Below the pieces are notes generated by a model. That model searched no databases. It was not told where the DNA came from and saw only the letters and a program-made list of their open reading frames with translations. The translations under genes and the position numbers were made by a program. DNA of 64,000 nt, taken from IMG/VR virus record IMGVR_UViG_3300043446_004967, positions 32,001 to 96,000 of that record; one strand, written 5' to 3'. The stretch is from a virus. Positions 3,242-63,474 of this stretch are shown piece by piece. How positions within the stretch are numbered: the stretch's first letter is position 1; the number at the start of each line of letters is the position of its first letter.

Positions 3242-3685
3242 ATGTTGTTTATTTTTGATCTCGACGGAACATTGGCGGACATACGGCACCGGCGGCATTA
3301 CGTCGAAAGTCCCCCGAAAAGGTGGGCGCAATTCTTTGCAGAATGTACGGAAGACACCCCTAAAAAAGACGTGATCGCCGTGTTGGAGTCGTTGAGACGC
3401 GCGGGAGCTGAAATCCGTATATGGTCCGCGCGCCCCGAAAGCACTGCGGAGGCCACGAAAGCGTGGCTGGCCCGACATATTAAAGGGGGCGACGAACTTC
3501 CTTTACGTCTCCGACAGAAAGGGGACTTCCGCCCTGACGCGGAGATCAAGCAAGAGTGGCTTAGGGAACTTACGCCGGAGGAGCGTGAAAGGCTGCGAGG
3601 GATCTTTGATGACAGAGACATTGTTGTTCAGATGTGGCGCTCGAACGGCGTCACCTGCTTTCAAGTAGATAACTACGAGAACTAG
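3242..3685 (+). CDS. HAD-family phosphatase (PNK 3'-phosphatase-like)
   Basis: FDLDGT motif I, WSAR, FDDR motifs; strong RBS. Confidence 0.85.
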   Translation: MLFIFDLDGTLADIRHRRHYVESPPKRWAQFFAECTEDTPKKDVIAVLESLRRAGAEIRIWSARPESTAEATKAWLARHIKGGDELPLRLRQKGDFRPDAEIKQEWLRELTPEERERLRGIFDDRDIVVQMWRSNGVTCFQVDNYEN

Positions 3686-3698
3686 ATAAGGAGGCCCC

Positions 3699-4511
3699 AT
3701 GCCGGTATATTTAAACGGCACGTTAATTGAAAAGCGGTATTATCCGTGCGGGGAGATCTCAGTGAGACTGGACGACCCCGCCCTTGCCTCACAGGGGAAT
3801 ACCCTGCGGGTCGACTATAAGGACTCTGATGACATCATTCAGATGCTGCTAGTCGCGGACGCAGTACGTAGAGTAGCCCCCGACAGGGCACTCTCTCTTG
3901 TCCTTCCGTACATCCCTTACGGCAGGCAGGATAGAGTCTGCCACCCTGGGGAACCTTTTTCGCTTAAAGTTTTGGCGGATATTATTAACGTCCAGAACTT
4001 TACCGCAGTGTACACGGTAGAACCGCATTCTGTGGCGTCGGCTAACTACATTCACCGCCTTTGCTCAGTAAGCGCGGCGACGTTAATCACCTACGAGGAT
4101 GGGAAAGGCGTGCGCGACCTGATACGGGAGGAAACCCCCGTGCTGCTCTCTCCCGATAAAGGCGGGAGGCAGCGGGTACTTGAGGTGGCGACCGCACTGG
4201 CCCAACACAATATCGTCTGTGCCGCCGCATACGCCGACAAGCGTAGGGAGGACGGGCAGGTAACGTTTACCCACGTGCCGGAAATTTGCGCCGGGAGAAA
4301 TATCTTGGTCATAGACGACATTTGCGACGGCGGGGCAACGTTCCTAAAGTTGGCGGACGCCTTACAAGAGCGCGGAGCGAGGGATCTTTACTTGTATGTG
4401 ACTCACGGATTTTTTACAAAAGGAACCGAGGAGTTACTTAAAAAATACAAAAAGATCTTTTATTACAAAGACTACCAACACATTGCCATATTGGAGCAAA
4501 AAAATGCGTAA
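3699..4511 (+). CDS. PRPS-like protein (likely NARP1 Adps, ADPR-PP synthetase)
   Basis: PYIPYGRQDR, SPDKGG, VIDDICDGGATF, YVTHG motifs; adjacent to NAMPT-like gene. Confidence 0.88.
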   Translation: MPVYLNGTLIEKRYYPCGEISVRLDDPALASQGNTLRVDYKDSDDIIQMLLVADAVRRVAPDRALSLVLPYIPYGRQDRVCHPGEPFSLKVLADIINVQNFTAVYTVEPHSVASANYIHRLCSVSAATLITYEDGKGVRDLIREETPVLLSPDKGGRQRVLEVATALAQHNIVCAAAYADKRREDGQVTFTHVPEICAGRNILVIDDICDGGATFLKLADALQERGARDLYLYVTHGFFTKGTEELLKKYKKIFYYKDYQHIAILEQKNA

Positions 4512-6039
4512 CCCTATGTTTATTACCGACTTTTATAAGATCTCCCACCGAAACATGTACCCGCAAGGTACAGAGGAAGTGTACTCGAACTTGACCCCAA
4601 GGAGCGGTAAGCTCGCTAAGGGCGTTGCAGGCGGTCTGCCGTTCACCGACGGAGTATTTGTCTTCGGGACAGAAAACTTTATACGGGACTACCTTTTAGG
4701 AGAATGGGAGACGGGTTTTTTCCGGCGGCCTTTAGAGGAGGTTTTGGAGGAGTACGTCAGTCTGCTATCTGACACACTCAACGGACCTGTGGAGAGTTCG
4801 CACGTTGCGGAATTGCACGGCCTCGGCTATCTGCCGTTAGAAATTAAAGCGCTCCCCGAGGGCGCGTTCGTGCCGGTACAAGTTCCGATGGTGACGGTAC
4901 GCAACACGTTGCCAAAATTCTACTGGCTGACGAACTACATAGAAACGGCCATGTCCGTTTACTTGTGGAAACCTTCCACAATTGCCACCATCGCCGCAAA
5001 TTACCGCGCGGTTTTGCTCATGTACGGGGAACGCACGACCGCCGACACAAGCTACGTGGACTACCAAGCCCACGATTTTTCATTTCGGGGACTGACGTCT
5101 CTGCGCGACGCGGAGCTGACCGGCGCGGGGCACCTCACAGCGTTTAAGGGGTCTGACTGCGTACCCGCGTTCCAGTTCCTGCACCGGCTCTATGCCGCCC
5201 CCTACGGTGAACTGGGGGGTTCAGTTCCCGCCAGTGAGCACTCCGTTATGTGCGCGGGGGAAGAAGAAGGAGAGTTTGAAACCATCCGCCGGTTGGTTAC
5301 GGAAGTGCATCCGACAGGGACCGTCTCCATTGTCGCGGATACGTGGAATCTGTGGCGTGTGCTTACGGACTATTTGCCGCGTCTGAAAGACGTAATCTTA
5401 GCCAGAGAAGGTAAAGTAGTCATTCGTCCCGACAGCGGAGATCCTGTAAAAATCGTAACGGGAGACCCCGAGGCCGGAGGTGACGGGCCTTACGCGGACG
5501 CGGAGCGTAAAGGAGTGGTACGCGCTCTGTACGATATCTTCGGGGGAACCGTAAACCCGAAAGGCTACAAAGAGCTGGACCCGCATATCGGGGCCATTTA
5601 TGGCGATTCCATCACCGTTTCCCGGGCGCAGGAGATACTGAGCCGTTTAGAAAAAAACGGCTTTGCCGCAAACAATATATATTTTGGGGTCGGGTCGTAC
5701 TCTTACGGGCACATGACCCGAGACACGTTCGGTTTTGCGGTAAAAGCGACCTCCGTTACGATCAACGGAGAGCGGCGTGCCATCCAGAAAGATCCTGTCA
5801 CGGGGGACCGCGAAAAAAAATCCGCTCGGGGTTATCTTGTCGTGGCGTATGACACTCTCGCAGGAAGGTACGTGTTGAGTGACGGCAGACCGTCCCCGGA
5901 AGGCGGGTTTCTGGAGACCATTTTCCTCAACGGGAAGCGCGTCGGGCCCGAGGCCACGTCATCTACGTTCGCCACGATCAGAGCGCGGGTACAGGGTAAG
6001 GCGGCGGAATGGGCAACCCGGTATACGCAGGGGATGTAA
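4504..6039 (+). CDS. NAMPT/NadV-like phosphoribosyltransferase (likely NARP1 Namat)
   Basis: TDFYKISH, HDFSFRG, PASEHSVM, IRPDSGDP, YGDSIT, TRDTFGFAVKAT, KKSARG. Confidence 0.92.
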   Translation: MRNPMFITDFYKISHRNMYPQGTEEVYSNLTPRSGKLAKGVAGGLPFTDGVFVFGTENFIRDYLLGEWETGFFRRPLEEVLEEYVSLLSDTLNGPVESSHVAELHGLGYLPLEIKALPEGAFVPVQVPMVTVRNTLPKFYWLTNYIETAMSVYLWKPSTIATIAANYRAVLLMYGERTTADTSYVDYQAHDFSFRGLTSLRDAELTGAGHLTAFKGSDCVPAFQFLHRLYAAPYGELGGSVPASEHSVMCAGEEEGEFETIRRLVTEVHPTGTVSIVADTWNLWRVLTDYLPRLKDVILAREGKVVIRPDSGDPVKIVTGDPEAGGDGPYADAERKGVVRALYDIFGGTVNPKGYKELDPHIGAIYGDSITVSRAQEILSRLEKNGFAANNIYFGVGSYSYGHMTRDTFGFAVKATSVTINGERRAIQKDPVTGDREKKSARGYLVVAYDTLAGRYVLSDGRPSPEGGFLETIFLNGKRVGPEATSSTFATIRARVQGKAAEWATRYTQGM

Positions 6040-6040
6040 A

Positions 6041-6523
6041 ATGGAATACCTGTATCAAGATATTACTCAAGTTAAGGGACCGTGCGCTATCGCGCACGGC
6101 GTTAACTGCTTAGGGAATATGAACTCCGGCGTAGCACGCGCTCTTTTTGAGCGATGGCCGGAAGTCAAAACGGAATATTTAAAAGTTCACCGGGAAGAAG
6201 GCTGGACGTTGGGGAAAGTACGCCCCGTTAACGTCGGGGACGGGATAACCGTACTCAACTGCGCGACGCAGTTACGCCATAGGCAAGCGGGAGACCCGCC
6301 AAATTACGTGTACGCCGATTGGCGGGCAATCCGTAGCTGTTTAACGGAGGCCGCAAGTTTTTGCAAAAACCAAAGCATTGACACGCTGTATGCCCCGAAG
6401 ATAGGGTGCGGTCTTGGCGGACTCGACTGGCGCAACGTCGAACCCGTTTTTAACCAAGTAGCCGGACGGGCAAAATTGCGTATGGTCGTTTGCCTTACAG
6501 ACACAGGAAGCTCCTCTCGCTAA
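6041..6523 (+). CDS. Macrodomain protein (ADP-ribose binding/hydrolase)
   Basis: IAHGVNCLGNMNSGVA and PKIGCGLGGLDW motifs. Confidence 0.88.
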   Translation: MEYLYQDITQVKGPCAIAHGVNCLGNMNSGVARALFERWPEVKTEYLKVHREEGWTLGKVRPVNVGDGITVLNCATQLRHRQAGDPPNYVYADWRAIRSCLTEAASFCKNQSIDTLYAPKIGCGLGGLDWRNVEPVFNQVAGRAKLRMVVCLTDTGSSSR

Positions 6524-6758: not shown

Positions 6759-7136
6759 ATGTCCGAATCTGCGAATAACGACGCGCTTGTAGTAGCCCTG
6801 AAGGGGTCGCGTACCATGGGTTTTACGCAGGCGTTTGAGTCCGTGACTATCGAAATGCACGAGGAAGGCGCCTTTCGTGTCTGCCTGCCCGTATTTCTGC
6901 TCGCGGATCCCGTCGTTTACGGAAATTTAGAACTTCTTGTGGAGCAGGATTCGGCGCTCTCCGCCGAACTAAGCGAGGCTTTCATAGCAAGAGACGCGAA
7001 TAGGCTTACCGAAGCCCTTCGCCAATGTGCGCTGAGCGGGCCTATGAGAACCTTTCTAGCTTCGGCTATGCAGATCACGAAAAACCACGCTGACCCTTGG
7101 AAAGACACGCGCACTCTTACCCTACAGCCGGTGTAA
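6759..7136 (+). CDS. Hypothetical protein
   Basis: ORF with RBS inside the operon. Confidence 0.55.
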   Translation: MSESANNDALVVALKGSRTMGFTQAFESVTIEMHEEGAFRVCLPVFLLADPVVYGNLELLVEQDSALSAELSEAFIARDANRLTEALRQCALSGPMRTFLASAMQITKNHADPWKDTRTLTLQPV

Positions 7137-7168
7137 GATAAGAGTACCCTATCAGTCTAGGAAACCCC

Positions 7169-7939
7169 ATGAAACTTATCTTAGAGAACATCGGGCCTGT
7201 AAAAAAGGCCGAAATACACCTAAAGGATCTCACGGTCGTGGTGAGCGAAAACCCTTTATGCTCTGCGTTACTGCCTAAGGTCATTGACGCAGTGGCCCGT
7301 ATGGTAGGGCGCACCCCCACGGACTTCTGGGGAGACTCGTTAAAAGAGGTGCTAAAGGGCCTACAAAAAGAATTTTTGTGGGCCACCAAACCGTGGGAAG
7401 ACGGGAGCAGAGAGGGGAGGATAAGGGTTCATAGCGAAGGAAGTCTTGTGCTGGAACTTTCGGTGACTTGTACGACAGTCCTAAACGTAAGGCCGCCGGC
7501 AGAAACAACGGTAGACGACATTCAGGTGGGGGTGCGAGTTGAGGAGGCTATCACACACTCAACGCTTTCTTGTTCTTGTGGTGTCGCACACCCTTACAAC
7601 TTCTTACACTGGGCCAACCACCGTTATCCGGGCAGCCGAATGACGGTCGCAGGCGCTTTAATAGAGAGCGGAGTCCATCCTGTAGACCAACTTGCGCTAG
7701 CTAAGAATGTAGTGGAAACGGCGAGAAACTTTGTATTCGTGTGTGTTACTTCCCACAGCCCCTACATGGTGGAAGCTTTAAAAAGGTATTCCGACCGCGA
7801 AGGAGTGTCCGCTCGTTTCGGGCTGGTGGGGGAAGACGGAATCCTCCGATACGATTGTTTGAGCGACATTTTTGCCGGGTTCGCTCAACCTTTCGATGAA
7901 TTTAGGCGGATGGACGCGGAAGATATGCGTGATGAGTAG
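7169..7939 (+). CDS. Degenerate AAA_15/AAA_21-type ABC ATPase derivative
   Basis: N-term LENIGPVKKAEIHLKDLTVV; C-term ESGVHP and TSHSPYMVEAL; Walker A absent. Confidence 0.7.
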   Translation: MKLILENIGPVKKAEIHLKDLTVVVSENPLCSALLPKVIDAVARMVGRTPTDFWGDSLKEVLKGLQKEFLWATKPWEDGSREGRIRVHSEGSLVLELSVTCTTVLNVRPPAETTVDDIQVGVRVEEAITHSTLSCSCGVAHPYNFLHWANHRYPGSRMTVAGALIESGVHPVDQLALAKNVVETARNFVFVCVTSHSPYMVEALKRYSDREGVSARFGLVGEDGILRYDCLSDIFAGFAQPFDEFRRMDAEDMRDE

Positions 7940-7987: not shown

Positions 7988-8440
7988 ATGGAAACACAAG
8001 AACGAAGCTATATCACCATTAGTCTGACGTCGAAAGTCTCCGGCGGCAAGAAATTGACGGAGGTGGAAGTCGAGTTCACGACCGTCTTTTACAGCAGACA
8101 CCATGAGTCAGATGACTGGAACAGGGAGTCCCGCGAGAGCTTTACACAGACTATTGACCCTCTCCCTTTTGGCAGAGAGTGGTATCAGATTATTTCCGGC
8201 GCGAAAGAACGAGACACCGAACAAATCATGGACGCCTTACGTAGTTATCTGCATAAAGCGCCGGGAAGGGTAACACATCCGGAGAAGTACATACAGCTGA
8301 CCCAGGTTTGTCGCAGACTAGACTATGACGCTAAGGCTAGCACAGAAAGCCAGTTGCGGCTAGTGTTCTCCGTGCCGCTGACCGCGCAGGAGCAGGAATC
8401 ATGGGATTGCGTCCCAGAAGAAAAAACAGCTAGCGTATAG
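7988..8440 (+). CDS. Hypothetical protein
   Basis: ORF inside the operon. Confidence 0.6.
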   Translation: METQERSYITISLTSKVSGGKKLTEVEVEFTTVFYSRHHESDDWNRESRESFTQTIDPLPFGREWYQIISGAKERDTEQIMDALRSYLHKAPGRVTHPEKYIQLTQVCRRLDYDAKASTESQLRLVFSVPLTAQEQESWDCVPEEKTASV

Positions 8441-8470
8441 CCGTAGTGAGTTTTATGTGAGGGATGTACC

Positions 8471-8830
8471 ATGACTACGCATTGGCTTGAGGCTTACAAA
8501 ACACAAGCGAAGGCTGCCGCCGAACATTATGCGCGCGCAAGTCGCGAGGAAAAAAGAAAGTGCGTTATCGCAGAGATCAAAAAGCTAGCGGAAGGTGAAG
8601 CTAAGAAGCTGTATCCGGGCCGGCGCGTCGCCTGTGCATTTAAAGGAAAAAGCAAATTCTTCCCGTCCGAAGGGCAGTGGATCATCTATCAAGCGGAAGG
8701 TGGGCGGTTCAATATTCATGTTGTCCCGTTGGGGATTGGGCCTGACTATGTAGGCCCTCCCCCGAATCCGTGGGAGGTTTGGGAGGAGGGTGAAATAAAC
8801 AAACTGGAGGAGGTAATATGGACGGAGTAA
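8471..8830 (+). CDS. Hypothetical protein
   Basis: GAGG RBS. Confidence 0.6.
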   Translation: MTTHWLEAYKTQAKAAAEHYARASREEKRKCVIAEIKKLAEGEAKKLYPGRRVACAFKGKSKFFPSEGQWIIYQAEGGRFNIHVVPLGIGPDYVGPPPNPWEVWEEGEINKLEEVIWTE

Positions 8831-8905
8831 TGGGCGCGATGATATGGCGAACCTAAGTTCCACGTCTCCGGTAAGCTCTCAACCTAAAAAGTGTGGATAA
8901 CTCGT

Positions 8906-9370
8906 ATGTCTGTATTTAGACTAAAGGCGACGTTCATTTATTACAAGCCTGTTAGAAGCTTTGATATTGAGGAATATCAGCCGATTATAAAAGATAACCC
9001 CGGAGTTTTTGCTACATGTACCTTTGGTCTAAGGAGGGAATGGCAAAAAATAGCAGATTTTGACGAAAATATAAGGGGGCGGAAGTTTAAGTATAACAAC
9101 ACAGAGTGCATAGCGTTGCGAGCATATTCCCCTTGGTATTGTTGGGGGGGGCGTCATCTGCTTCTTTTTGCGTTTAGCGACCCTAAAGACGGAGCGATAA
9201 AAACAAAAACAAATATTACCAGACCCACCGAAAGAGAGTGCGTTGATTATTTTAATCGGCGACGCGATTTCCTTCTTGGGCAATCTACAGGAATGCTTGA
9301 TTGGCTTGACGCCGATTACGTCAAGAGAATACCCCCGCTTTTAGCAACGCATTCTATAACGTTAGTGTAG
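8906..9370 (+). CDS. Hypothetical protein (lower GC)
   Basis: ORF; start uncertain (8891 or 8906). Confidence 0.55.
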   Translation: MSVFRLKATFIYYKPVRSFDIEEYQPIIKDNPGVFATCTFGLRREWQKIADFDENIRGRKFKYNNTECIALRAYSPWYCWGGRHLLLFAFSDPKDGAIKTKTNITRPTERECVDYFNRRRDFLLGQSTGMLDWLDADYVKRIPPLLATHSITLV

Positions 9371-9389
9371 TCGTAAAAGGAGAGGGCGG

Positions 9390-9480
9390 CGGGGACGGTA
9401 GGATTTGAACCTTCGACGCGGCTGCAACGCCGCGTAACGGTTTAGCAACCCGCCGCCTTAAGCCGCTCGGCCAATTCTCC
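9390..9480 (-). tRNA. tRNA-Ser(GCT), degenerate or chimeric
   Basis: Minus strand: TGGCCGAGCGGCTTAAGGC D-arm, TT-GCT-AA loop, long variable arm, GGTTCAAATCC; 3 acceptor-stem mismatches; no CCA. Confidence 0.7.
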
Positions 9481-9683
9481 CTCTGATAATCCCGCCCTTT
9501 TTTAAGGGGCGGGACCGATCTACCGGATCGAGGGTAATGCTAACAATAGGCGACGACGTCGTCAAGCCTAAAAAACGGGGAGTACGCCATTCCCCCTTAC
9601 AGTGCGCCCTTTCTTCGCGCCTCTAAATAAGGCAAGACTAACCCCCCGTGCCGACGGCTACCGCCGCAACGCTCAGAGCCATG

Positions 9684-10265
9684 TTACTCTCCTTTACTGT
9701 AGATTACGCTTGCCGGCGGATACGGGTAGTCGGCGCTCACGATCTGACGGTCCTTGATGTCCTTAATAATAAAGGCGGGAAAGTCCTCCAGTGTATCGCT
9801 TGGACGGTAGGCGTACCGCAAATACTGTTCCGCCATTTCCTCATGGTTTTGCGCCAGATAAAAAGCGTGCAGCTCCAGCGCCGCCGCCCGAAGGGCGAAC
9901 CACTTGACATCCCTCCTTAGCGCTACGGAAAATCGTTTGCACACTACCATACCGGCTAGACGCGCTTTCGCGGCGTTTTCACAGTCCCGCAAACTTGCGT
10001 ATACATGCGCGTATAGATTATTGGCGCATAATAAAATCTCGGGGTAGTATAACGCCGCTGTTTGGTTGAGGCGTGCGGACATAGCCGCCATCAGCGAAAA
10101 AGCTTTGTTTACGTCAGTCTCCTCCGCCAAGTCCCCGCTTATCATTAAAACGTCTTGGTACGCCTCGTAGCCGGCGTCGCCTGCGGAAAAACGGTCGCGG
10201 CTTAGAACCGCGTGTCGCATTATGTCGCGGGCGAGGCCGGATACCTCTTTTTGATACTCGTACAT
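9684..10265 (-). CDS. Hypothetical helical protein
   Basis: AGGAGA RBS; divergent promoters at ~10320-10380. Confidence 0.65.
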   Translation of the reverse strand: MYEYQKEVSGLARDIMRHAVLSRDRFSAGDAGYEAYQDVLMISGDLAEETDVNKAFSLMAAMSARLNQTAALYYPEILLCANNLYAHVYASLRDCENAAKARLAGMVVCKRFSVALRRDVKWFALRAAALELHAFYLAQNHEEMAEQYLRYAYRPSDTLEDFPAFIIKDIKDRQIVSADYPYPPASVIYSKGE

Positions 10266-59428: not shown

Positions 59429-60274
59429 TCAGCTTTTCGCGTTTTGGGGAAAATTAAACCCTGAGCTTCGCCAGATTTCGCTGACCGGGCGGTTTCCGTT
59501 ATAATCTTCCATCACCCTCGGCAAGTCGCTTATCTTGCGCACGATAGCAAAGGGTTTTCCTTCGCTGTACTCCCGTCTAAAGAAGACTACTTCCTCCGGT
59601 TCCGCGTAGAACAAAGAGTCAGGTTGGTATATCGTGGCGATCTTCTGCACCTCTCGGTCCGCCTGCACTTCCGCGTGTAACGTTTCCCTTAGACAAATCT
59701 GATCGGCAGGGTAAACCCCTCGTTCGATGTTCTCCGTCATCTGCAAGGCGCCGCCGCTAGGCAACAGGAACCGCAACGCCGCATACGATTCTTCGTCCGT
59801 GTCTCGCAGGCGTGTCGCTAGAGGTACGTCCTTTTCACTTATGCTTAGGGTTTTCGCGCGTGGTTGCGGGCGCTCCGTAGACGAAACGATCTCCGATAGG
59901 GTCTCCTCCACCACAAAAGTTCCCCCCTCCCACACAATCTTTATGAGATAGATGTGTTTCTTCCGTTGAGGGAGGGCAGGATCATACGGGTCGAGCGTTT
60001 CTAGTATCAGAGAAATATGCGTGCTCCGCGCGCGGCGCGTCTCGCCAAATCCTCTTAAGTTGGCGAAGGACACCATGCCGGCTTCGCCTCCTCGTTCTTT
60101 TACAAGCTCTACCGCAGATCGCCCGGAGGCCAAACTTTGTGCAAACTTGATCGCGTCGAGCAAGGTGGACTTGCCTGTGCCCGTGTCCCCGACTAAGAAG
60201 ATCAGCCTAGGAAGGTGCTGCAATGAGGTATTCGCGTGAAGCCTGTAGTTGTACAGGCCGAGGGAAACTATCAT
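59429..60274 (-). CDS. Degenerate, internally shortened AAA_21-type ABC ATPase
   Basis: GDTGTGKSTLLDA; ENIERGVYP in place of EEPENGLHP; H-loop eroded. Confidence 0.7.
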   Translation of the reverse strand: MIVSLGLYNYRLHANTSLQHLPRLIFLVGDTGTGKSTLLDAIKFAQSLASGRSAVELVKERGGEAGMVSFANLRGFGETRRARSTHISLILETLDPYDPALPQRKKHIYLIKIVWEGGTFVVEETLSEIVSSTERPQPRAKTLSISEKDVPLATRLRDTDEESYAALRFLLPSGGALQMTENIERGVYPADQICLRETLHAEVQADREVQKIATIYQPDSLFYAEPEEVVFFRREYSEGKPFAIVRKISDLPRVMEDYNGNRPVSEIWRSSGFNFPQNAKS

Positions 60275-60741
60275 AACCCGTGCTCTACCTCGTTAACGTA
60301 AATGTTTGCTTCTAAAAAAAGTTCTATAGCTTTCTGTTGGCTGTCCGCCCATGTACTTGCCTTGTCCCTCTGTGGGAATGTGACGTAGCGCATGCCCGAG
60401 GCTATAATGACTCCAGCGCAGCGTACACACGGCGGTTTTGTCACATAAAGCACACGCGGACGATGGTTCGACCGTAGGCAGCTGAGAATGGCGGAGATCT
60501 CCGCATGGATCACGATTTGGTTTTTTACCTCCTTGTCGTGCCACCGGTCGTCATCCGCTATTCCGTTTGGAAACCGGTTTACACCATAAAAAGAGTTTCC
60601 CGTCGCCGTCTGCACCACGGCGCCTACTTTATCTCTGGGGTCATGGCTATGGGACTGCGCATAAGAAAAGGCCCCCCGAAGGGGGCCTTCCACGCTGCGA
60701 AAGTGTTCGCTTCCTTTTTTTATAAAGGTGTATCTCTCCAT
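60271..60741 (-). CDS. dCMP deaminase
   Basis: KVGAV, HAE, PCVRC. Confidence 0.9.
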   Translation of the reverse strand: MERYTFIKKGSEHFRSVEGPLRGAFSYAQSHSHDPRDKVGAVVQTATGNSFYGVNRFPNGIADDDRWHDKEVKNQIVIHAEISAILSCLRSNHRPRVLYVTKPPCVRCAGVIIASGMRYVTFPQRDKASTWADSQQKAIELFLEANIYVNEVEHGL

Positions 60742-61455: not shown

Positions 61456-63474
61456 TTAGCGGGTTTTGTCGCCCGCGTCAACCGGCGCGGGCTTCGGCGT
61501 TTCAGTTTTGCCTAGCCCTGCGGCGATGCGCTCCATCTCTAAAAAAGCATGGTAGGCGACGTTATCGCTAAACGGGGCGGTCAGCTCATCAAGCTCGGCG
61601 CTAAGCCTCGCTTTTTCCTCCTCCGAGGCGTCTTTTCCTTGTTTTAGAATCTCATAATATTGTTGGGCCGCTTCCTTCATCGCTTGGCGGCGTTTGCTCA
61701 TTTGCGGCAGTCCCACACCCATCACGTCTTCGAGGATGTCTTCGATGGGTTTATCCCAGTATTCGCCTCCTGTAGGGTACGGGTAGGCGCAGCCTGTCTC
61801 GATGTGGCGCCCCTCGCAGGTACGATTGTCCTCATGATTGACCTCCTCGTCCCACTTTCTTTTAGCAAGGTCCGACTGCCCGCGCAGTTCATGGGCCGCA
61901 TAGACGGCAGCTTGATGGCTAAGCTGGAGCGCGCGCGCCTCCAGCTCCGTGCGCATCTGATGTCGTTCGGCCTCCGACGCAAATCCTCCGTGGTCTAAGC
62001 GGCGGTAGTATTCCTCCGAAACGTCGGCTAGTTTTTGCCGAAGCGCGCTTACTTTCGGCGTCGGTACACCCATAACTTCTTCCGCGATAGCCTCGATAGA
62101 CTCGTCGGCATACACACCGCCGGAAGGTTGAGGGTAGGCAATGCCTTTTCTACAGGAGTAAGGCACGTCCGGATCGTCGTCCTCGTGCTCCCGCTCCTCA
62201 AAATTTTCCTCGGAAGTGGGTTGCGGTTCTTCTTCTCTCGCGTCAGGAATCCCCGCAGCGTATCTTTTCATTTTGAGGAAGGCTATCTCTCCCGGGTAAT
62301 CTTTGAACGAGGCGCACAGCCTATCCAGCTCCGCTCCGACGGCCATTTTTTCCTCCTCCGAGAGGGGTTTAACCTTTTCCGCAAGTGTTAGGTACTGAAG
62401 CGCGGTTGCCCTTAGCTTCACTTGCCGCGCGCTTACTTGCGGCAGCCCTATCCCCATGAAGTCTTCGACGATATCCTCTATGGAATACGCGGAAGGGTCT
62501 TCTTCGCGTCTTTCCAGTCGCGTCACGTCGATTGCTTGGCCCGCCGTAAGGGATTGCAGGATAAACGGCGAGTGCCCCGTCGCAATAAATTGAACAGCGG
62601 GGAAAGCTTCTTGCAGCGCGCTCACAATGGTGCGCTGCTCTAAAGGGTGCAGCGAGGTCTCTAGGTCTTCGATCAGAACTACGCCCGGCGTAATCTCTAC
62701 AGCTCGTGCGCCCGCGTGGGGGTTTAACCACGCCGCGCGACAAGCTAGGTCTAGCGCTATGGTTAAAACGCTCCTTAACCCTCCCCCTAGCCTGCTAAGA
62801 GGGAACCAGCCCGACGCTTTAAGCTTTACGATAATTTCGGGCGTACCCTCTCGGATCTCCATCACGCGAAGGTCTTCGCACTCCGGCACGCATTGCCTGA
62901 CTGCCGTTAATGCGGCGCCCCATGCCGCCGCTATGTCCGGGTAGGCGGAGCTAGGCATTCCCTGTAGGAGGGAGAGTAAAAGGGCCACGGTGGTCTTCTT
63001 TTTATGGAACGGTAAACAGCCGTCGTATGCCTTAGTATAGGGAGGTACCCCCGGCCTTCCCAGTTTTTTTCGCTTGGGCAAAGTGAACGTACCCGGAGCC
63101 GTCCGATAGGTTCCGTACCATGCAATAACAGGCCGGGTTTCCCGCCTGTCGTCCGTCGGCGCGGCTGCGACTAGCGCAGAGGACGGCGCCAAGGATAAAT
63201 CCCAACGAAGACGTTGTCCCTTTACGTAGACGCGCGCCTTCATAGCCGTGTGGGGGTCCGTCGGCACGGTATAGCGGGTCTCCCCCGCGCATCCGCACAG
63301 GTCGGCAAGCAAATAGGATACGGCGTCGAGGACGGAGGTCTTCCCCGCGCCGTTACCCCCGATCAAGTAGTTAAACTGCGGGTGAAATACGATATCCGCT
63401 AAGGCTAATTGCCTAAACGAACGTAGCGATAACCGCTCTATTCTGAACTGATTTTTTGCGTCAGCCGTGCTCAT
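61456..63474 (-). CDS. PtuA/AAA_21-like ABC ATPase with triplicated C-terminal domain
   Basis: GGNGAGKT; GVVLIEDLETSLHP; GHSP; three 'IE.I.E..MG...P..S.R' repeats. Confidence 0.8.
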   Translation of the reverse strand: MSTADAKNQFRIERLSLRSFRQLALADIVFHPQFNYLIGGNGAGKTSVLDAVSYLLADLCGCAGETRYTVPTDPHTAMKARVYVKGQRLRWDLSLAPSSALVAAAPTDDRRETRPVIAWYGTYRTAPGTFTLPKRKKLGRPGVPPYTKAYDGCLPFHKKKTTVALLLSLLQGMPSSAYPDIAAAWGAALTAVRQCVPECEDLRVMEIREGTPEIIVKLKASGWFPLSRLGGGLRSVLTIALDLACRAAWLNPHAGARAVEITPGVVLIEDLETSLHPLEQRTIVSALQEAFPAVQFIATGHSPFILQSLTAGQAIDVTRLERREEDPSAYSIEDIVEDFMGIGLPQVSARQVKLRATALQYLTLAEKVKPLSEEEKMAVGAELDRLCASFKDYPGEIAFLKMKRYAAGIPDAREEEPQPTSEENFEEREHEDDDPDVPYSCRKGIAYPQPSGGVYADESIEAIAEEVMGVPTPKVSALRQKLADVSEEYYRRLDHGGFASEAERHQMRTELEARALQLSHQAAVYAAHELRGQSDLAKRKWDEEVNHEDNRTCEGRHIETGCAYPYPTGGEYWDKPIEDILEDVMGVGLPQMSKRRQAMKEAAQQYYEILKQGKDASEEEKARLSAELDELTAPFSDNVAYHAFLEMERIAAGLGKTETPKPAPVDAGDKTR

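Follow-up and report, generated by a model that had tools for sequence, protein, structure and literature searches.

A phage-encoded ABC-ATPase shell without a nucleotide site as a candidate subunit mimic of a bacterial ATPase-nuclease defence pair

Anatomy of the gene and its product

The DNA considered here, hereafter the window, is a stretch of 64,000 nucleotides comprising bases 32001-96000 of the 110,897-bp IMG/VR virus record IMGVR_UViG_3300043446_004967, which carries direct terminal repeats. Its plus strand contains, at 7169-7939, a gene for a protein of 256 amino acids (aa), here termed P0001, the two ends of which resemble the ATPase subunit of bacterial defence modules consisting of an ABC ATPase and a nuclease. 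The gene and its regions are as follows.

7158..7164, plus strand: Shine-Dalgarno-like TAGGAAA, 4 nt 5' of the ATG, as read from the sequence
7169..7939, plus strand: whole gene of P0001, a Walker-less ABC-ATPase 'shell'; an intact open reading frame (ORF) of 256 aa
7169..7243, plus strand: N-terminal three-strand module, which precedes the P-loop in ABC ATPases, residues 1-25; matches PD-T4-4_A, with modelled strands at 2-8, 11-17 and 20-26
7244..7267, plus strand: degenerate Walker A position SENPLCSA, residues 26-33, located by alignment
7412..7492, plus strand: retained beta-sheet piece of Insert 1 (EGRIRV...), residues 82-108, with G83 invariant; located by alignment, with modelled strands at 82-89, 92-100 and 104-108
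7502..7639, plus strand: hypervariable, low-confidence linker, residues 112-157; predicted local distance difference test (pLDDT) below 50, length and sequence differing in 6/6 family members
7664..7690, plus strand: Walker B remnant and its sequel ESGVHPVDQ, residues 166-174, corresponding to DEPENHLHPKWQ in the parent; Asp lost, Glu and HP..Q kept
7748..7765, plus strand: H-loop strand TSHSPY, residues 194-199; S195, S197, P198 and Y199 invariant, His replaced by Asn in 2/6 members
7766..7936, plus strand: C-terminal extension MVEALKRYSDREG...LSDIF...PFDEFRRMDAEDMRDE, residues 200-256; within the short family no part is better conserved, and none is closer to the bacterial ATPases

The frame is unbroken from 7169 to 7939, as a preliminary description of this DNA had maintained, and the strings quoted in that description are all present in the translation (NIGPVKKAEIHLKDLTVV at residues 7-24, SENPLCSA at 26-33, HPVDQ at 170-174 and TSHSPYMVEAL at 194-204). 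The assigned start is supported by alignment, in which the N-terminus MKLILENIG coincides with residue 1 in all homologues.

Matches of P0001 to profiles are confined to its two ends. At the N-terminus, residues 1-28 correspond to positions 1-28 of the PADLOC model PD-T4-4_A (E value 1.3e-8), and residues 166-217 match phrog_14430, the last 37 positions of AAA_15 and many models of defence ATPases, a result that bears out the resemblance of the termini to AAA_15/AAA_21 proteins suggested earlier. The Pfam thresholds themselves are not reached, AAA_15 scoring 11.5 bits against a cut-off of 32.1 and AAA_21 giving no match. What has happened between the ends becomes apparent in a joint alignment with homologues of 430-436 aa, to which P0001 is 50-55% identical across 36% of the query. 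Here SENPLCSA falls exactly on the Walker A motif GENDNGKS, and the G-K-[ST] of the consensus GxxxxGK[ST] is found in none (0/6) of the members of the short family to which P0001 belongs. LI-ESGVHP falls on IFDEPENHLHP, that is, on Walker B with the LHP motif, such that the aspartate is gone and the hhhhDE pattern of Walker B is absent. Relative to the full-length ATPases about 180 residues are missing, comprising helical inserts, the Q-loop region and the NTASGIK signature; the linker at 112-157 stands where the parent has its Q-loop, second insert and signature motif. The lost Walker A, the eroded Walker B and the short middle, all three of which had been proposed from the letters of the DNA, are thus recovered by alignment.

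Retained in P0001 are the N-terminal strands, the three-strand piece EGRIRV..., HP..Q, SHSPY and the whole of the C-terminal extension. The surface stretches of the extension are ALKRYSDREG, LSDIF and PFDEFRRMDAEDLRDE, its identity to the extensions of the bacterial ATPases at loci L007, L004 (Acidovorax) and L003 amounts to 50-52%, and the extreme acidic tail RMDAEDLRDE is among the parts kept as in the bacterial family. Since the P-loop, the Walker B aspartate, the Q-loop/signature region and both inserts have been lost, neither the binding nor the hydrolysis of ATP, nor an ATP-sandwich dimer, is to be expected of P0001 on its sequence. The C-terminal extension is proposed to be a partner-docking module.

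The AlphaFold2 (AF2) model of P0001, built on the family alignment, has a pLDDT of 68 and a predicted template modelling score (pTM) of 0.68, with residues 112-157 disordered. At the top of a Foldseek search with this model stand GajA (8wy5_A, E 1.4e-4) and, with values to 1e-3, SMC/Rad50 heads. Comparison by VIA gives Z 12.2 to the SMC head 5xei (175 residues aligned, root-mean-square deviation 3.2), Z 11.1-11.3 to PtuA (11.3 for 9nnk_C) and about 11 to GajA, the range over ABC heads being Z 10.5-12.2 with 160-206 residues aligned, and a structure search of the ESM Atlas yields a template modelling score of 0.80 (by query) to AAA_15/AAA_21 clusters. A sequence search of the Protein Data Bank (PDB) with P0001 returns chance-level matches only (alanine dehydrogenase, E 1.3). 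The ABC fold presumed in the preliminary description is therefore present by AF2, Foldseek, VIA and ESM Atlas, and on the model P0001 is best described as a predicted ABC-ATPase lobe-I shell without a nucleotide site.

The short family, its origin and its constraint

In a search of 5.8 billion proteins, P0001 was found to have five short relatives (219-255 aa), which align over the full length at 33-42% identity, together with some 40 AAA_15/AAA_21 ATPases of 420-442 aa. The E value to full-length ATPases is 1e-23, and by this measure the likeness is far beyond chance. With a profile of their own, searched among 1.84 billion representatives, the six short proteins score E 1e-76 to 1e-94, the next match being at 1e-34. 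The members are 38-48% identical to P0001 over aligned columns, and all are open frames of common architecture. Genomic context was read for P0001 and for the member in the IMG/VR phage fragment L002; the other members, P0003, P0004, P0005 and P0023, are Logan-derived proteins.

In a tree restricted to the regions in common, 28 residues at the N-terminus and 100 at the C-terminus, the six short proteins form one clade (SH-aLRT 100) on a stem of 0.78 substitutions per site, nested among full-length ATPases of Alcaligenaceae, Comamonadaceae, Burkholderiaceae and Pseudomonas. Because they make up one nested clade, the topology fits a single capture of a Burkholderiales/Pseudomonas-type ATPase by a phage lineage, followed by diversification.

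Two other sets of proteins were considered for membership and rejected. The shortish homologues P0063, P0065, P0085, P0112 and P0137 keep both Walker A and Walker B (GENDTGKST, LDEPEVHLHP) and, to judge by these motifs, are small active ATPases. Proteins consisting of the C-terminal part only (P0077, P0084, P0147, P0188 and others), which might have constituted a family of mini-decoys, look like contig-end fragments or chimeric gene calls and appear to be derived from Walker-containing bacterial genes. In P0188 and P0077 an unrelated N-terminus (a DnaX-like P-loop in P0188) is fused to about 90 C-terminal residues of this ATPase family, and such joins are probably assembly chimeras or bacterial gene remnants.

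Beyond these proteins, relatives are scarce. Neither megablast with 5 kb around the gene nor tblastn with P0001 found a match among GenBank phages, and a scan of JGI metagenomes gave one 1.7-kb fragment only (L054). A pattern-based scan of IMG/VR with the short family returned L002 only, and the corresponding scan with the full-length family found no full-length relative, an absence that, the scan being pattern-based, is weak evidence.

L002 is syntenic with the window, the HAD-like gene being 72% and the macrodomain gene 68% identical at the aa level, and in both the short ATPase-like gene and then further common genes follow the macrodomain gene. P0001 and its L002 orthologue are 42% identical by BLASTP and 47% over aligned columns. 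The ratio of nonsynonymous to synonymous differences per site (pN/pS) between these two DNA sequences is a crude measure here, synonymous differences having reached saturation (pS 0.65-0.98). It amounts to 0.31 in residues 1-30, 0.84 in residues 31-160 and 0.27 in residues 161-256, compared with 0.25 for the HAD gene and 0.30 for the macrodomain gene.

L002 also encodes a second, much more divergent paralogue (9575-10240, plus strand; 221 aa, 27% identical), in which the N-terminal strands and the EGRI sheet are retained, SHSPY and the acidic tail at the C-terminus having been lost. Its relatives are two fragments only, P0192 (99%) and P0193 (69% identical), and the window has no counterpart of it.

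The distribution of conservation within the two families points in the same direction as the pN/pS values. Pairwise identity in the Walker A columns is 0.78-0.83 in the long family as against 0.19-0.37 in the short one, in the signature columns 0.83 as against 0.11, and in the Walker B columns 0.90 as against 0.43, whereas in the C-terminal extension the order is reversed, with 0.59-0.75 in the short family and 0.36-0.60 in the long. Furthermore, 59-78% of the short-family residues in the extension are the majority residue of the long, bacterial family. Constraint has thus shifted away from the catalytic motifs and now rests on the C-terminal extension together with the N-terminal strands.

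These data bear directly on the possibility that P0001 is a decaying remnant, a neutrally drifting product of an in-frame deletion in a phage-carried ATPase. The middle third, near-neutral at a pN/pS of 0.84 and poorly modelled, is what such a remnant would show, and the second paralogue of L002 looks further degraded still. Yet the family has six members, which at 38-48% identity to P0001 all retain open frames and a common architecture, the terminal modules have, even with synonymous divergence (dS) saturated, a pN/pS of about 0.3 like that of their bona fide neighbours, and the C-terminal extension is conserved at least as well as in the functional bacterial family. The shift of constraint described above excludes neutral decay as the principal explanation, and the whole idea, largely refuted by the family and selection data, strikes us as very improbable. 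The neutral decay that the preliminary description had named as a possible refutation of its proposal is therefore countered by the ratios at the termini, by the six-member family and by the syntenic orthologue.

The probable parental ATPase-nuclease pair and the phage neighbourhood

A scan of species genomes gave 51 loci. Wherever the available sequence sufficed, the ATPase gene was found to precede an ORF of 167-218 aa (typically about 175 aa), the stop of the one and the start of the other usually overlapping; the product of this ORF we call partner B. In 18 sequences of B, D63, E76 and K78 are invariant (...SPDAI...YFVEFKNQ...), constituting a PD-(D/E)xK motif. Its profile matches are weak (HEC-02B at 0.003, Shedu SduA_C and the bunyaviral L-protein endonuclease, L_protein_N), and they all point one way. 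The AF2 model of B has a pLDDT of 83, and at the top of an exhaustive structural search with it stand almost exclusively PD-(D/E)xK nucleases (Upx, BspD6I, NucS, FokI, Can2 and McrC), with Z scores of 5-6.2 that lie below the confidence level of Z 8. Foldseek with B found nothing at E 0.001 or better, and a PDB sequence search with the B profile gave PylC at E 0.15 only. Partner B is probably a PD-(D/E)xK nuclease.

The full-length ATPases have as their best matches PADLOC HEC-02A (1e-31) and PD-T4-4_A (1e-28). By sequence, the parent would then be a pair comprising an OLD-type ABC ATPase and a small PD-(D/E)xK nuclease, of the HEC-02/PD-T4-4 kind and often situated in BREX loci. HEC-02, consisting of an ABC ATPase and a NERD-type PD-(D/E)xK protein, has been shown experimentally to protect against phages, both genes being needed (10.1101/2024.01.29.577857), and PD-T4-4, a PD-(D/E)xK nuclease with a P-loop NTPase, builds higher-order complexes (10.1101/2025.07.10.664194).

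As to the genomic setting of the pair, in Pseudomonas oleovorans DSM 1045 (L003:6045-14691) it occupies 8001-9834 and lies, with a DRT UG5-nitrilase gene, between the split halves of the BREX gene pglX (an N-terminal half of about 600 aa and a C-terminal half of about 590 aa), with brxC just upstream, and at L012 (5953-11928) and L013 (5932-15161) it is likewise found between pglX halves and by brxC. At L006 the pair follows an intact pglX, at L011 an N-terminal pglX piece, and at L007 a short pglX remnant lies upstream. This placement at L003, L006, L007 and L011-L013 agrees with a report that pairs of an OLD-type ABC ATPase and a nuclease are pervasively associated with BREX loci (PMC12839542). 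Together with the experimental activity of HEC-02, it lends indirect support to a putative anti-phage role of the parental pair.

On the phage side, the gene of P0001 comes shortly after the following genes in the window.

3699-4511: Prs-like gene, upstream of the P0001 gene
4483-6039: Nampt-like gene, upstream of the P0001 gene
6041-6523: macrodomain gene, upstream of the P0001 gene

This group is a counter-defence cluster of the type that reconstitutes nicotinamide adenine dinucleotide (NAD). In L002 (4367-5283) the HAD-like and macrodomain genes adjoin, and the Prs-like and Nampt-like genes found between them in the window (3242-6523) are absent; within the phage lineage, the NAD-salvage pair thus seems to have been gained or lost as a cassette. 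The further flanking ORFs (6759-7136, 7988-8440, 8471-8830, 8891-9370 and others) belong to no Pfam or PHROG family. An inverted repeat with a 16-bp stem (7111-7147) includes the stop codon (7134-7136) with which the upstream ORF 6759-7136 ends, and lies just 5' of the ribosome-binding site of the P0001 gene; it has no T-run on the plus strand and is terminator-like on the minus strand only.

The preliminary description had stated that the gene lacks a nuclease partner, and the B profile indeed finds no match in the whole 110,897-bp record or in that of L002. This observation is relevant to another conceivable function, in which P0001 would be a subunit of a phage-borne system, such as one that excludes superinfecting phages or regulates a phage nuclease, acting with an effector partner not recognised as such. 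ABC-ATPase defence modules are frequent in phages, L002 carries two paralogues of the short gene, and two more ATPase-like ORFs exist in this phage, 59429-60274 and 61456-63474. However, a protein without an ATP-binding site cannot be a sensor or a motor, a B-like nuclease is missing from both phage records, and no neighbour gene is conserved together with the short gene between the two syntenic phages. We consider a role in a phage-borne system quite unlikely.

The two further ATPase-like genes lie on the minus strand. That at 59429-60274 (281 aa) matches the HEC-01A, PtuA and AriA models over no more than about their first 70 positions, and that at 61456-63474 (672 aa) matches PtuA strongly (E 1e-86). 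Between them, also on the minus strand, the ORF 60271-60741 (156 aa) matches part of the PADLOC model for dCTPase (positions 438-485 of 630, E 4e-9).

Possible mode of action and its significance

Modules that combine an ABC ATPase with a nuclease, including Gabija, Septu, PARIS, OLD, HEC-01 to HEC-04, PD-T4-4 and Menshen, are among the commonest anti-phage systems. With the A subunits of HEC-02 and PD-T4-4 (OLD-type, AAA_15/AAA_21 proteins acting with a PD-(D/E)xK/NERD nuclease) P0001 has clear homology and a common core fold, but it is some 180 aa shorter and lacks Walker A, the Walker B aspartate, the Q-loop/signature region and the inserts; moreover, it is encoded by a phage instead of a bacterial defence island and has no adjacent nuclease gene. 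Of Walker A, Walker B, the signature, a Pfam score above threshold and an adjacent nuclease, all of which were looked for, P0001 has none, and so it is, in terms of sequence, a homologue of the HEC-02A/PD-T4-4-type ATPases but not a functional member. It would thus qualify as a virus-encoded homologue of a host immune component that has lost its catalytic residues and that, as far as two DNA sequences with saturated dS can indicate, is under selection among counter-defence genes.

Three known cases bear on how such a protein could act. In Septu and retron Ec78 a PtuA dimer uses its C-terminal extensions to hold the PtuB nuclease, and toxicity requires the extension (PMC12819146). PtuA-PtuB (PDB 9nnk, 9nnh) is, like the parental pair, an ABC ATPase with a separate nuclease, and the P0001 model superposes on PtuA over about 190 residues; the sequence identity is only 16-18%, however, PtuB is an HNH and not a PD-(D/E)xK nuclease, and the equivalence of the extension kept in P0001 to that with which PtuA holds its nuclease is putative. 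More generally, complex formation is a common property of nuclease-NTPase systems (10.1101/2025.07.10.664194). Among anti-CRISPRs are viral homologues of Cas subunits that form defective complexes (10.1101/2023.06.24.545427). The underlying principle would be shared with P0001, in that a virus has among its anti-defence genes an isolated copy of an immune subunit of its host, and this copy is built into a defective complex, although the immune system and the fold are others and the Cas homologues have been tested experimentally, whereas the role of P0001 is read from sequence.

The third case is the phage inhibitor of Gabija, Gad1, which is not known to be related to GajA in sequence or fold and encases the complex instead of mimicking one of its subunits. 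Gad1 (PDB 8u7i), as is proposed for P0001, targets a defence complex made up of an ABC ATPase and a nuclease. A literature search found no subunit-mimic inhibitor described for any ABC-ATPase/nuclease defence.

Taken together, the anatomy of P0001 and its setting suggest that the protein is a copy, adapted to the phage and without catalytic capacity, of subunit A, the ATPase, of a two-gene bacterial defence module; its retained C-terminal extension and N-terminal strands would serve as surfaces for protein contacts. P0001 would be made early, together with the neighbouring NAD-salvage and macrodomain counter-defence genes, and its C-terminal extension would occupy the site at which the host ATPase holds its nuclease; alternatively, P0001 might enter the host ATPase oligomer as a dead subunit. 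By either route the sensing of infection would be uncoupled from the activation of the nuclease. We give an even chance to P0001 being a subunit mimic of this kind, which either titrates the host nuclease or poisons the assembly of the ATPase.

The same conservation pattern could also be compatible with exaptation of the scaffold, such that the lobe-I shell and the C-terminal tail bind some other host or phage factor, as a regulator or adaptor, and the likeness to defence ATPases is merely historical. Selection on the N- and C-terminal modules is not in itself tied to a nuclease, the stem of the short clade is long (the 0.78 substitutions per site mentioned above), and the flanking ORFs are all orphans. 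A new partner would nevertheless be expected to remodel the kept parts, but it is precisely these that are most parent-like, the C-terminal extension carrying bacterial majority residues at 59-78% of its positions, including RMDAEDLRDE, and the position beside counter-defence genes fits an anti-defence role. Exaptation is, in our view, unlikely, though less so than either a phage-borne system or decay.

Several considerations weigh against subunit mimicry. We infer the binding and inhibition by P0001 from anatomy, genomic context and precedent, and the nearest structural precedent, PtuA, belongs to another ATPase subfamily with another type of nuclease (HNH). The parental system is sparse, occurring in four of 401 sampled Burkholderiales species genomes, and the short family, with its six sequences, is very rare. 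The estimate of constraint on the gene suffers from the crudeness already noted. In addition, the second paralogue of L002 has lost SHSPY and the C-terminal tail, from which it follows that the tail cannot be the sole functional element, unless that copy is itself decaying. A predicted complex of P0001 with the nuclease partner of Ca. Aalborgicola, whose system is the closest among the species genomes, scored 0.10 against a mark of 0.32, a result that speaks neither for nor against binding.

A wider notion, which we put forward tentatively and hold to be somewhat less probable than subunit mimicry by P0001 itself, is that phages repeatedly turn captured defence ABC ATPases into ATP-independent shells reduced to partner-docking surfaces, which would inhibit ATPase-nuclease systems, the backup systems embedded in BREX loci among them, by subunit poisoning; the short family and the two other ATPase-like ORFs of this phage would then be independent instances. 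Should subunit mimicry by P0001 be correct, the principle by which a homologue of an immune gene acts as its inhibitor, so far known for Cas subunits and antitoxins, would extend to the ABC-ATPase/nuclease class, and the C-terminal extension would stand out as the docking surface on which the function of an uncharacterised ATPase-nuclease family critically depends. A search rule for anti-defence genes would follow as well, namely orphan Walker-less ABC heads in the early regions of phages, as would a tool with which a BREX-embedded backup system could be switched off experimentally.

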